A stretch of 64,000 nucleotides of DNA from Eledone cirrhosa (taxonomy: Eukaryota): the NCBI GenBank assembly GCA_964016885.1, contig OZ024746.1, positions 6,076,001 to 6,140,000 on the forward strand. The letters run 5' to 3'. The notes below the pieces were generated by a model. That model was not told where the DNA came from, ran no database searches, and saw only the letters and a program-made list of their open reading frames with translations. Within the stretch, counting starts at the first letter, position 1. Each line of letters opens with the position of its first letter. Below, one piece after another: positions 25,537-57,890 of this stretch. Both the position numbers and the translations under genes were made by a program.

Positions 25537-25847
25537 AAAGAAAAAAAGATGAAATCGAAAATGCAACTGGAGTCTTATTTTTCTTTTAAATATATATATT
25601 TATTTGGTTCCTTTACCGGTTTCGCAGTTCTTCTACTTTCCAAAAGTAGAGTTGAGATGGAGGGTCTGTAGTTTTTCTCACATCTGAGAAAAACTACAGA
25701 CTGTGAGAAAAACTACAGACCCTCCATCTCAACTCTACTTTTGAAAAGCAGAAGAAATGCGAAACCGGTAAAGGAACCAAATAAATATATATATATTTTT
25801 TTTAAATAAGACTCCAGTTGCATTTTCGATTTCATCTTTTTTTCTTT
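25537..25847. mobile_element. Fold-back insertion with about 145-bp arms
   Basis: AAAGATGAAATCGAAAATGCAACTGGAG... mirrored; the centre contains a duplicated TGAGAAAAACTACAGAC. Confidence 0.85.
25738..25773 (+). ncRNA. Minimal type I HHR, U3-A8 core variant
   Basis: CTT-TTGAAAA-GCAgaagaaaTGC-GAA-ACCGGT-A-AAG, followed by AATAAA. Confidence 0.75.
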
Positions 25848-26147
25848 ATATATACACACACATACACACACACACACACACATATATATATATATATACA
25901 CACACATACACACACACACACACATATATATATATATATATATATACACACACACATATATATATATATATATATATATATATGTGTGTGTGGGTGTGTG
26001 TGTGTGTATATATTAGAAAAGGGAAGTGAGGTTCTATACAAAACAGGGGGTATTGAGAAAAGATGAGGTTGGAAATAGCACGGGAAATATATTTAAGGGT
26101 CTGTTTTTCTTCTTTGATTTGTTTGAAAAGATAGTGTTATTAAAAAG

Positions 26148-26470
26148 ATAATTGTTTCTACTTTTGGCACAAGGCCAGCAATTACCCAGTGCATTACTGG
26201 TACTTTATTTTATCGACCCCGTAAGGATGAAAGGCAAAGTTAACCTCGGCGGGATTAAAAAGATAATATTATTAAAAATGAGAGGCGGTGGATTGGCAGT
26301 ATCGGTAGAGGGTCGGACGCCATGCTTTCCAGCATATTTACGTCCCTTTACGATCTGAGTTCAAATCCCGCCGAGGTTAACTTTGCCTTTCATCCTTACG
26401 GGGGTCGATAAAATAAAGTACCAGTAATGAACTGGGTAATTGCTGGCCTTGTGCCTAAAGTAGAAACAAT
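26148..26470. mobile_element. Two SINEs in opposite orientation (26148-26255 minus, 26285-26470 plus, complete)
   Basis: Match to the SINE consensus seen elsewhere in the window. Confidence 0.85.
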
Positions 26471-28046
26471 TTTTAAAAAAGAGAGGGACAATTCTTTTTT
26501 GAGCATTTTTTATGAAGTATATAAAGTATATGAGAAAATTACCGGTATCGATGTATTAAGATCCATTTTGCCAAATTCAGTGAAAAACGTTAATTAAAAA
26601 GGAGCGAAAAAAGGTTTTAAATTAAAATAAAAATAAAAATCGAGTAAAATTTCTTCCATCATATATCCTGAAAAGTTGGCTGGGAATGAGGGCAAGTTGT
26701 TTTGTTGGTGTGAGAAATATGATGTAACCGTATTGTTTACTTTAGTGGTCAATAGTGCAAAAGGGGATAGGAGGTTTTAAGAGCTGAATACTGTGGTAGG
26801 TTGGGATGTCTACATACCCACACACATACATACACACACACACTTGTATAGAGAGAGTGTGAGGGTGTATATACAAGAGTACACACATGTGAGTGTGTGC
26901 GTACATGTATGCATAAATATGTGTGTGTATATATGTGTGGGGTTGTTGTGTGTGTGTATGTTTTTACAGTTTGTCTGTTATGTTTATTTTTGTAAAGGGG
27001 AACAGAGAAAAAATTCTTTTCTCTCCAAAATTCAGAAAATGGGCAAAAGTTAAGAGCTGAAATCCAAAGGATTCCCAGAATCCGAAAATGTAAAAATTAA
27101 AGAAGTTAAGAGAGTTAAGAAAACTCTTCCAAAAAACTTTTAAAAATACATTTCAAAAGAAACCTTAAAAAAATCTTTCTCTCCCCAAAAAACACCCTTT
27201 AAGAGAAATTTTTAAAAGATCTTAAAATATCTTTTCAAAAACGAGACACAGTGCGTGTATATATAAAAGAATGAGTAAATAAATAAATATATACAAAGGG
27301 AATTAAGTAACATTTTTTTCTACAAAATTCCCAAAATTGTCAAAAGTTAAAGGCTAAGAGCCAAAGGGTTCTCAGAATCCCAAAGTTTAAACATTAGAAA
27401 ACAAATGTTTCAGTGCGCGCGTGTGGGGGGGGGGGGGACTAATGAGGGTTATTACATATTTAGTTTTGGTTTAGATTTATTAATACATAGCTTTTCCTTA
27501 TTTATTCTTTGTTGTTGAGTGAAAGAATCGGAGCACTTGTAAAGGTGGAAGATTTTAAAGTTGGGGAGTTTCATTCCTGCACAATCTGCAATGTAGCTGC
27601 TTAAGGGGATTTTCCTTGTGTTTACGTCTCGGATTTGTTGGCGATGGCGAACACCCTGACCGCAAAGCTAGTATGGATATATATATATATATATAACGCG
27701 ATATAAAGTGCCTTGCTCAAGGACATAACATTCCACCTGCTCAAACATTGGAACTTATAGCCTTACGGCCATGAGTCGAACACCCTGACCGCGAAGCTAG
27801 TATGCATATATATATATATATATATATATATATATATATATATATATATATATATAATAATGATAATAATAATAATATTTATAGTTATGTATATACTATA
27901 AACAGGAAAGGTCATTAATTTCTACTACCTTATTACCAGTGAGAAAAAAGCTCAATCTAAGAGCCTCAGTTGTTTTACAGAGCAGGAAAATAAAATTAAT
28001 AAATAAAATTAGACAATTATCAAAGTTGTGTTCAAATCATTTAATA

Positions 28047-54388: not shown

Positions 54389-54566
54389 CAAGGGTTGACT
54401 AAAATGTTCATAGATTGACCAAGATACTCTCATGGTTTTAGACCAAATGAGATGTATTTTTCAACAGAGTCCTTGGAAAGAAAGAATGCAGTTATTAATA
54501 AGAGTTGAAATTAATGCATGCAAGATTTCTCAGTTCTAGCATCATGAACCATTCAGTCGATTCTCG
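54389..54566. mobile_element. Mariner-like MITE with TA flanks
   Basis: TA|CAAGGGTTGACTAAAATGTTCAT ... ATGAACCATTCAGTCGATTCTCG|TA. Confidence 0.65.
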
Positions 54567-56448
54567 TATTCCACACATAAATGTTCATTTATGTGGTGGT
54601 GGGGGTGGGGTTCTACACTTTACGCAGAATATCTAAATAATTAACATTCTCATTTAAGACTTATGAACAATTTCCTTAAGAAATTAATCTCAGAATTTAG
54701 ACACATTTGAAATAGTGGGAATGATTTTGATGATGATTCTTAATTTAGGCCCCAGCAATTCGTCCAGTATTTAACTGGTACTTTATTTTAACGAACCCGG
54801 AAGGGCGAAATGTAAAGTTGATCCCGGTGTTATTTGAACTTGAACTCTACTTCATTTTAATAAAAAGAACATTGTTGTCTCGAGACAATGTTGATCGAGA
54901 CAAAGCGAGAGTGCACTTGAATGCATATAAAATGAGAAAGCTCATCGCAAGAACAGCCGTTAAAAAACCAAAGTCAAAGACAGTGATGAGCAAAATGCCT
55001 CAAATGACAGAGACCAGCGGTCAGTGGTCGACATAGACAATCCATAAGGTGGGTGACAGGCAGATTAAATATAGAAAATATTGAAAGAGGAGGAGGACAA
55101 GGAGAAGTGTGTTGGTACACAGAAGTGACTGGAAGAAGGAAATAAAGAAAGGTGATGTTTAAGACAAGTTTACACATCTTCACCCTCATTAGCTCTCAAA
55201 CCAGCAAAATGGTTTCGCATGATTTAATTCAGTGTAATATTTTAGATACTATTTTAATAATTGTTTCTACGTTAGGCACAAGGCCAGCAATTACCCAGTG
55301 TATTACTGGTACTTTATTTTATCGACCCCGTAAGGATGAAAGGCAAAGTAATAATATTTGTAGAAACTATTCTCTGTCCACAAGTCAGTTTAGCATGTCT
55401 ATCATGAATAACTATAAGGTTATCATATTCTGATTCTTTCTGTAAAATATTTGACCGCAGATTTCTTCAATGAATATGAAATCGTACAGTCAAAGTAAAG
55501 TTTTATTTAGCCAAGCTAAATATATTGTTTGATCTTTCTGTTATTAAAACCTTTTTTCGAGATGTAATAAATCTTGATTATTAAAATAAAATACAATGCA
55601 ATATAATCTTTGTAATCGTGAAAGATTAAACTGTTTTTGTTGTTTTTCAGTCCGCACTAGTTCCTGATAGAATCGACTCATGATCAACAATTCTCCGGCT
55701 ATGAGCTCTGGATCTTTTGTTAAGATATAATCTATATGGCGTTACCTATTGAATGTCACAGTGGAGCGAGAGAGCGTAAGCTACTATTCTTTTGAAGATT
55801 AAAGGACCATATACACTTGGCAGTAATGGAGTTACTGAGTTTCAGTAGTTACGTTCGTGGATTACACAGCCCCCACCAAGGACGACAATTTTAATAAGAA
55901 ACCACTATATCTTGAAAGAAAGAACAAATTGCATTTGAATATGCTGTCATTCCTGAACATATGCGTGGAATTTGATTGTGACTGCTGATGAGAAATAAAT
56001 GCAGTTTTCAAATGTGTTTTCTCTTTTCGAGCCGTGACATGATGAAGAGAAATTCATAAAAAATAATACAAAACAAAACCAAATAGATTCAAACAATTTA
56101 ACAGTGAGCAGCAAGGGAAAATAAACTATAAAATATGTAGAGAAAATGCATGAAGTAATTATCTATTTTATCGATTTACACCTCAAGCAGATGTGATTAG
56201 TTAACAAAAAATATATTTTTTGTTGGGAAATAACTGTTTGTTTTATATTGCGTAACTTATTTCATAGTATGTAGATCGCAATCAGAAAGCTGTGTTCCGT
56301 TGTAACTTAAAATTGCAGGGTAATGTTTATTATTGTTGCATAGTAACGCAATTGCACACAAAATTGTCATAAAAATACGTATGTACGCAAATACAAATTT
56401 GAAATTTATTTTGAAAACAAAGGTATTCAACCCCCACACACATAGACA

Positions 56449-57890
56449 CGAATATACACGCAACTGTACACACATACACACTTACATATTCTATAAATGG
56501 GGTTCAAAGATAATTTTGTTGACATTGATAGTGAGCCGAGTATATATATATATATATATATATATATATATATATATTGGTAAACGGAATAGAAAATGCT
56601 GACAAATTGTTCACAGTGAAAACAGTTTAATTAGGAATAAGTGATAATTAGTAATAGTATTGGTTAGTATTAAATGGATCCCCCTTGCGGTGCGTGCGGT
56701 CTGGACACACTCACACACACCTTGGTATTATGCCAATACTATGTATCATTTCACACCTTTTATTGTTAAGGTTTTTGGTGTTCTATTGGGAGAGTCGGTG
56801 TTACTGAAGATGTCGAATAGTGTACACCATTTTAACAGAAATAAATACTGATCCACCCACACACACACACACACATTCTCTCACACACACACACACGCAC
56901 ATATATACACACACACATACACACGCGTACATTAACATACAAAGAGACATACACACACACACACACACACACACACACACACACACACACACACACACAC
57001 ACACTTCTCCGTATAAGACAAGAGCTGAAAAAATATCTTTTAACATGTTAAAATTTCCCCCACACACTTACAGACACATTCCTACTGACCATCCCTCTAC
57101 CACGAATTACTCTGCTACACACATACACACACACACACACACACACACACACACACACACACACACACACACACACACACACACACACACACACACACAC
57201 ACACACACACACACACACACACACACACTTGTCTTAATAGGCATCTGAACTGTCAACAGGCTGCGGTTCGCACACACATCCCTGCTGACCATCACAACAA
57301 TGAACCTCTTTGCTGCTACTACACACACACACACATATTTGTTGTGAGAGACTTGTTTCTCAGTCAGCCGACACAAACCTACATTTGGCGCAAAATCAAT
57401 TTTTTTACATTCACATGACCTCTACCGACCAATCAAAATTGTTTTGACCACAAGAATTTTTGCAACACGAATTGGTGCGAAACTTATTTTAATACATCTG
57501 GAGCCACTTTTTTCACATAAAACAGGTAGAATTTCCAAAACTAATCAGATTAGAGCAAACATCACGGGCGCTCTATCTCAAAATTATTTTTGAAAAGCAT
57601 TAGAAATGCGCAACCGGTAAAACTTAAAACCAAAACTGAATACTAACCAATACTATTACTAATTTTTACTTATTCCTAATTAAACCATTTTTCACTGGGA
57701 ACAATTTGTCAGCATTTCCTTTTCCATTTACCAATATATCATAACTCGTGTGTTACACCTCTATTCTTTTATATATATATATATATATATATACTCGGCT
57801 CACTATGAATGTCAACAAAATTATCTTTGAACCCCATTTATAGAATATGTAAGTGTGTATGTGTGCACAGTTGCGTGTATATTCGTGTAT
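56449..57890. repeat. Nested inverted repeats: outer arms 56449-56541 and 57793-57890, inner family C arms 56575-56671 and 57639-57737
   Basis: Two unrelated arm pairs, separated from each other by (TA)n on both sides. Confidence 0.85.
57587..57622 (+). ncRNA. Family C HHR-like motif, U3-A8 plus A13C
   Basis: TTT-TTGAAAA-GCATTagaAATGC-GCA-ACCGGT-A-AAA; the same GCA is present at 29441. Confidence 0.6.

Follow-up and report, generated by a model that had tools for sequence, protein, structure and literature searches.

The locus

The stretch of DNA described here, called the window throughout, comprises 64,000 nucleotides (nt) of Eledone cirrhosa (assembly GCA_964016885.1, contig OZ024746.1, forward-strand positions 6,076,001 to 6,140,000) and is numbered from its first letter. 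It is 33% GC, comes from a host genome of 3.0 Gb and is rich in (TA)n and other microsatellites. It also holds open reading frame (ORF) fragments of Penelope-like elements (PLEs) and an abundant short interspersed nuclear element, presumably octopod given its appearance. Five sites in the window, 7120(+), 25741(+), 30744(-), 38704(+) and 57590(+), carry TTGANAA in place of the CTGANGA of the canonical hammerhead core, as a preliminary description of this DNA had reported and the sequence confirms, and each heads a predicted type I hammerhead fold. Judged by their sequence features, the five are the 3' ends of PLEs or lie in retrozyme-like non-coding repeats, and they belong to four mutually unrelated groups.

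The heptamer alone is uninformative, as TTGANAA occurs 90 times in the window and CTGANGA 26 times. At all five sites, positions 3 and 8 are paired as U3-A8, together with U4, G5, A6, N7 and A9. The second half of the core, consisting of G12 A13 A14, the A15.1-U16.1 pair and H17, is present at 7120, 25741, 30744 and 38704; site 57590 has C13. Stems I, II and III surround the core, which is open at stem I, and are feeble in 25741 and 57590. The window copies of 30744 and 7120 contain pair-breaking changes. The earlier wording, that the folds are otherwise well formed, does not suit 57590, with its A13C change, and needs correcting for the broken copies at 30744 and 7120. The preliminary description also left out the identical twin of 38704 at 38454(-) and a canonical motif at 47075(-). 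The evidence for the folds consists of descriptor scans, helix enumeration and constrained folding compared with the minimum free energy (MFE) structure. Rfam listed no hammerhead among 150 of the 207 matches for the whole window, and had no hammerhead match at 38600-38850 or 7091-8300.

When six elements of the window were compared, the only matching pair was 25741/57590, with 84% identity over 51 nt. The earlier proposal of several distinct families therefore stands as four unrelated groups, with 25741 and 57590 as relatives. In every family, the motif lies ~105-370 nt 5' of a fixed 3' end. The coordinates of the predicted features are collected in Table 1.

Table 1. Predicted features of the window and the residues or evidence that define them
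Feature	Position	Strand	Details
Tandem array, 606-bp non-coding unit, retrozyme-like	7091..9300	+	tandem repeats
Large type I hammerhead fold	7115..7247	+	U3 7120, A8 7125, G12 7203, C17 7242, A10.1·A11.1 mismatch
Inverted pair of 25741-family 3' ends	25536..25848	.	minus-strand copy U3 25643, core decayed
Minimal type I hammerhead	25738..25773	+	U3 25741, G12 25761, A17 25770
3' end of Hydra-type PLE family	30560..31198	-	endonuclease upstream in relatives
Decayed U3-A8 hammerhead copy	30653..30747	-	U3 30744, G12 30678, C17 30656
Head-to-head truncated insertion of young ~591-bp tandem non-coding repeat, (TA)n-flanked	38141..38859	.	retrozyme-like
Identical inverted twin of 38704 motif	38372..38459	-	U3 38454; descriptor scans
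Type I hammerhead fold	38699..38786	+	U3 38704, A8 38709, G12 38768, C17 38781
Canonical C3-G8 minimal hammerhead, U·U mismatch at 10.1·11.1	47043..47081 (ends approximate)	-	C3 47075; relaxed descriptor
5'-truncated 3' end and short inverted arm, coding Neptune/Nematis-type PLE	56578..57770	+	lies between (TA)n runs
Minimal type I hammerhead, U3-A8 and A13C	57587..57622	+	U3 57590, C13 57611, A17 57619

Chance controls and positions 3 and 8

The frequency of the two cores was measured in 120 random 10-kb loci (1,199,400 bases) using a strict descriptor and 20 shuffles. This gave 14 matches for C3-G8/GAAA, 1 for C3-G8/GCAA, 11 for U3-A8/GAAA, 6 for U3-A8/GCAA and 3 others, compared with shuffle means of 0.05, 0, 0.2 and 0 for the four named classes. 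With a relaxed descriptor that allows a 10.1·11.1 mismatch, the same loci yielded 62 C3-G8/GAAA and 16 U3-A8/GAAA matches (means of 10 shuffles, 0.1 and 1.1), and 50 shuffles of the window yielded no U3-A8 and no C3-G8 match. The preliminary description had named similar hit rates in dinucleotide-shuffled pLTR sequences as a refutation; the shuffles made here produce 0-3 U3-A8 matches per 1.2 Mb against 16-17 in the real sequence.

The union of the strict and relaxed searches comprises 96 sites: 65 C3-G8, 25 U3-A8 and 6 others, and it overlooks an abundant C3-G8 family whose stem III palindrome is imperfect. The C3-G8 sites are spread over 25 of the 120 loci and 13 of 24 clusters, and the U3-A8 sites over 15 loci and 6 clusters. 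These six U3-A8 clusters, found in 1.2 Mb, have unrelated stems, although one of them is a single match that may be due to chance.

The genome-wide comparison of the two cores, which had been proposed earlier, was made with a simple pattern on the forward strand only, reverse-strand counts being multiply counted. Here, C3-G8 occurred 27,555 times, U3-A8 17,166, C3·A8 4,364 and U3·G8 1,858; reversed-pattern controls gave 8,029, 6,177, 2,331 and 3,451, respectively. The simple pattern misses long stems II, the mismatch types and the A13C family. The paired 3/8 combinations dominate, with an odds ratio near 58 that is pseudo-replicated by family. A pattern with an ACCGGT stem III found 29,551 U3-A8 motifs, mostly from two related families, against 2 for C3-G8 and 2 for the reversed control.

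The U3-A8 share is 28-56% depending on the method and is thus descriptor-dependent: 25 of 90 paired sites in the union, 27 of 48 when the simple pattern is applied to those loci, and 38% genome-wide. In the minimal PLE hammerheads of Schistosoma mansoni, ~1,300 U3-A8 motifs stand beside ~2,000 canonical ones (Cervera and de la Pena 2014, PMC4209133). Against this benchmark of ~39%, the share is not unusual, and the earlier suggestion that the variant is unusually common in this lineage is not supported.

The coding families

The 57590 motif has a second box that reads GCAA, not GAAA. Position 13 is C in 98 of the first 100 copies listed for the family, and A13C is common to two or more subfamilies with stems II of unequal length. 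No second type I motif was present in any of the five long copies scanned. The ORFs are ~95% identical between long copies, and all three ORF pieces examined have PF00078 (RVT_1) and PF01541 (GIY-YIG) above cut-off. In 21 of 94 windows taken upstream of the motif, with overlapping loci unmerged, an endonuclease ends ~0.8-1.2 kb short of it. The elements have tandem or inverted terminal repeats, a 30-40 nt tail and variable 5' truncation; the layout is a tandem repeat-ORF-repeat at locus L354 and inverted terminal repeats at L348-L351. The 3' ends lie mainly 145 and 180-184 nt past U3.

The translations contain DKG, YLDD, a CX4CxxC linker and CCHH in the C-terminal GIY-YIG domain. Neptune/Nematis PLEs are described with the same motifs, the linker being CX2-5CxxC (Craig et al. 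2021, PMC8557442). By these motif criteria the 57590 family is a coding Neptune/Nematis-type PLE. It differs from them in having a hammerhead with U3-A8 plus A13C. At 29302-29602, there is also an inverted pair of 57590-family 3' ends, cut off inside the hammerhead.

The sister motif, 25741, has a stem I of 3 bp and retains A13. It is predicted to fold only as a dimer. The ACCGGT stem III that it shares with 57590 is self-complementary (duplex -8.3), the pattern expected of dimer-active PLE motifs. Upstream of 25741-family motifs, 1 of 96 windows contained a Neptune-type endonuclease (EN) at the expected distance (51% identity) and 2 of 96 contained Hydra-type pieces. This family is probably also a Neptune/Nematis-type PLE, an ORF of its own being suggested at one locus.

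The 30744-type hammerhead is well formed in most relatives. The hammerhead fold lies 7.3 kcal/mol above the MFE in the decayed window copy, compared with 0.1 in the relative L027. In relatives, an EN with a CxCX5C linker ends ~0.7-1.1 kb upstream of the motif. The related locus L154 combines this linker with CxxC and CxH endonuclease motifs and (TA)n targets, all of which are shared with the Hydra clade of PLEs (PMC8557442), and family copies upstream of the motif are 67-88% identical to its EN. By motif criteria, then, the 30744 family falls in the Hydra clade. File S2 of the same paper lists C3-G8 in 26 of 26 Hydra rows, which carry a canonical-descriptor bias; the 30744 family has U3-A8. 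A homologue search with the L154 EN returned 13 unnamed proteins, and Pfam had no match in six window ORF pieces or two L154 pieces.

The ORF at 31437-33186 was considered as the partner of the 30744 motif and rejected: it is 42% identical to the 30744-family EN and is assigned to another Hydra-type family. Broken Hydra-type PLE ORFs with CxCX5C linkers lie at 31137-33200, 4886-7090 and 43600-44640; the first, which neighbours the motif, has the DKT also found in the Hydra clade (PMC8557442). The Hydra-type PLE at ~4886-7090 carries a hammerhead-like fold in its end repeat (6925-6975, 24777-24830 and L202); the first box of this fold is altered in both window copies. Short palindromic remnants of 30744-family 3' ends, folded back inside the hammerhead and (TA)n-flanked, occur at 37785-37970, 40770-40956, 23994-24175, 15913-16079 and 61088-61135, and a further 40 matches fall in 25 of the 120 random loci.

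The non-coding repeats

The 38704 motif has a stem I of 5 bp, a long stem II and a palindromic stem III. Its hammerhead fold (-21.5 kcal/mol) is within 1.1 of the MFE (-22.6), and the stem III self-duplex is -12.9. On contigs C494 and C3, tandem copies of the unit are spaced 591-593 bp apart. A sense PLE match was found upstream of the motif in 3 of 63 windows. The choice of 38699-38786 as the best candidate for a cleavage test was a fair one.

The 7120 motif has a stem I of 5 bp and a stem III of 5 bp with a hairpin, and recurs at 7726, 8332 and 8938 (+606, +1212 and +1818). In these window copies, the stem II pair next to the 10.1·11.1 mismatch is likewise broken. The hammerhead fold is 2.6 kcal/mol above the MFE in the window copy and 0-1.1 above it in the three commonest family sequences. 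Strict descriptors miss this motif; helix enumeration and constrained folding recover a type I fold. A type-SGC order (scrambled, non-circularly permuted; class defined in PMC10085705) was tried and rejected, as every one of the three stems closes when the blocks are read in C-G-S (type I) order.

Relatives of 7120 form a clan of ~3,000 motif copies with units of 606-615 bp, a common fixed 3' end before (TA)n and variable 5' truncation. Because some loci overlap, tallies of clan copies in locus samples should not be read as copy numbers. No sense PLE ORF was found upstream of the clan motifs in 100 windows. Thirteen of the 29 distinct motif sequences were picked to cover the subfamilies. On a structure that came from a member of the alignment, 93.5% of their cells pair, compared with 30-52% for slid partners, and 2 of 40 pairs are altered on both sides. 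All 13 have U3, with A8 in eight and G8 in five. Position 10.1 in the clan is A or C and faces A11.1. Both U3-A8 and U3·G8 subfamilies form long tandem arrays (L131, L298, L317; G000:C1:81709748-81717069). In both the 38704 and the 7120 family, each non-coding unit of the tandem repeat holds a single type I hammerhead.

Other motifs and repeats

Relatives of the canonical motif at 47075 build ~480-bp tandem arrays (L196). Canonical C3-G8 retrozyme-like arrays were also seen with units of 310, 556, 482 and 466 bp (L167, L172, L196, L263, G000:C1:5738325-5745804). An abundant repeat with CTGATAAG...CGAAA boxes, which read C3·A8, lies at G000:C1:1183-1223 and many other places (L362-L365). This repeat is dominant among the C3·A8 matches listed, and a stem I/III partner within 120 nt was absent in four of four copies; it is probably not a hammerhead. 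At 30012-30470, the end of a non-coding repeat forms a long inverted pair, which is the source of an Rfam MIR841 score; a relative in L150 has a doubtful U3·G8/GCAA descriptor match.

Comparison with known systems

The closest parallel is with the Cercyon PLEs of S. mansoni (PMC4209133). These share the type I fold, the U3-A8 core, a short palindromic stem III and PLE terminal repeats, as well as inverted pairs 100-700 bp apart and a similar motif share (~39% there, 38% here). The motifs described here differ in number, with tens of thousands of copies against ~1,300, and in their hosts, which are Hydra-type and Neptune/Nematis-type PLEs and tandem non-coding repeats. They also differ in the long stems II of three families and in the A13C and U3·G8 families. 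Animal non-LTR retrozymes (PMC7229834; bioRxiv 10.64898/2026.07.22.740005) are, like the 38704 and 7120 families, non-coding tandem units with one type I hammerhead each, present as monomers to multimers. Here, however, the units are ~590-615 bp rather than 170-400 nt, and the cores are variant. The same 3/8 covariation was described by Perreault et al. (2011, PMC3088659), where the variants are several among many; here they make up a large share of the genome's motifs.

The U3-A8 swap is therefore a known PLE variant, published in 2014, and by sequence comparison what is new is the genome and the host clades. Only two features go beyond the published work found, namely the family with A13C and the clan with U3·G8. 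The open literature contained no report of a fixed A13C in a coding PLE or of a U3-A8/U3·G8 retrozyme clan; Lünse et al. 2017, Przybilski and Hammann 2007 and the supplements of PMC4209133 may bear on both.

Explanations for the swapped core

In the reading that we favour, and consider fairly probable, the U3-A8 type I folds lie at the 3' ends of PLEs and of non-coding repeats that likely use the enzyme of PLEs. Most would self-cleave element RNA slowly, as dimers or aided by PLE protein, with the A13C family cutting weakly or not at all. In the published model, cleavage would yield unit-length RNA, which circularises and becomes the template for tandem insertions. Selection on propagating copies would keep positions 3 and 8 paired, as the covariation across unrelated families suggests. 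The change from C3-G8 to U3-A8 would require two transitions via a U·G wobble, and it should be easily reached because both are directed toward AT in a window of 33% GC; the 7120 clan displays this wobble in families that spread. PLEs of Hydra type and of Neptune/Nematis type alike carry U3-A8, which therefore probably had more than one origin or was passed among elements by 3'-end exchange.

The natural U3-A8 core is reported to be active in vitro (PMC3088659), and dimers of the minimal S. mansoni motifs had low activity (PMC4209133). The earlier statement that the swap preserves the pair and occurs naturally holds, since positions 3 and 8 covary and natural examples are published; retention of activity depends on context. 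Likewise, selection for catalysis, which had been claimed for all of the motifs, is a reasonable inference for the set and doubtful for 57590, where A13C is fixed. Failure to cleave, earlier named as a refutation, is insufficient, because the Anolis PLE hammerhead is reported to cut only with its protein (PMC11167929).

A number of observations weigh against slow self-cleavage under selection. The MFE z-scores of the motifs against shuffles are ordinary (-1.43 to +0.30), the monomer folds of 25741 and 57590 stand at +4.7 and +6.5 kcal/mol, the latter with a stem I of three A-U pairs, and the clan pairing count depends on a structure from within its own alignment. In one type III hammerhead, only a G3-C8 swap rescued activity and U3-A8 did not (PMC9901934). 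A13 is found in just 34 of 10,264 exact 57590-family copies when any base is allowed at that position, and a hand count of the first 100 listed of 185 matches to the 606-bp subfamily gave U3·G8 in 68 and C3 in none. Strict catalytic selection would thus not be universal, because A13C is fixed in >10,000 copies and U3·G8 is common in the 7120 clan. For the Anolis PLE, insertion in vitro was unaffected by hammerhead mutants, and RNA-seq gave no read ends at the cut site (PMC11167929).

A rival view is that the motifs are hammerhead-derived and their cutting largely dispensable. The fold would then persist near the priming site in a structural or protein-binding role, or merely be carried along, with U3-A8, U3·G8 and A13C as tolerated drift. 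This view is suited by a fixed A13C in a coding family that includes a tandem copy (L354) and whose five scanned long copies lack a second type I motif, as well as by the 10-100-fold cost of A13 changes in a minimal hammerhead (PMC4075628), the long arrays made by U3·G8 subfamilies and the dispensability of cleavage for the Anolis PLE in vitro (PMC11167929). We nevertheless regard dispensable cutting as unlikely: across families the stems differ fully, yet the tertiary 3-8 pair and the boxes needed for catalysis persist, a pattern not easily accounted for unless selection acts on the active conformation. At the other extreme, all variants, A13C and U3·G8 included, might be fully active in their own context, with PLE protein or a long stem II compensating. 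Protein-assisted cleavage in the Anolis PLE (PMC11167929), natural active core variants, including insertions beside A13 (PMC3088659), a mention of a natural core with U3 and G8 (PMC7151607) and the presence of A13C in subfamilies of differing stem II length speak for this. Still, the A13C motif shows no compensating change and has the weak stem I and unfavourable monomer energy given above, so we think full activity quite improbable. Finally, the motifs could be chance matches in AT-rich repeats that were amplified with the host repeats: the bare heptamer is common, loose descriptors yield junk and the two minimal U3-A8 motifs are short-stemmed. The excess over shuffles and over the reversed ACCGGT-type control, together with the set distance of the motifs from a fixed 3' end in every family, largely refutes this, and little likelihood is left to it.

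Implications

The role of PLE hammerheads is called open in both PMC8557442 and PMC11167929. In practical terms, searches for the canonical core overlook about one in three, or more, of the type I motifs in this genome, as had been foreseen and as the blank Rfam results at two of the sites illustrate. More tentatively, the PLE hammerhead cores of this genome may form a natural allelic series, each member in a family that has spread: C3-G8, U3·G8, U3-A8, and U3-A8 with A13C. Should the A13C core be inactive, a PLE with its own genes would have grown to >10,000 copies lacking a ribozyme that cuts, whereas its A13 sister retained one, and this would be genomic evidence that cleavage is optional. 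If instead the core cuts with its protein, it would be a variant absent from the published work found. The matched natural pairs, 25741 (A13) with 57590 (C13) and the U3-A8 with the U3·G8 subfamilies of the 7120 clan, would bear on whether these elements need cleavage and on how the core pair is exchanged.

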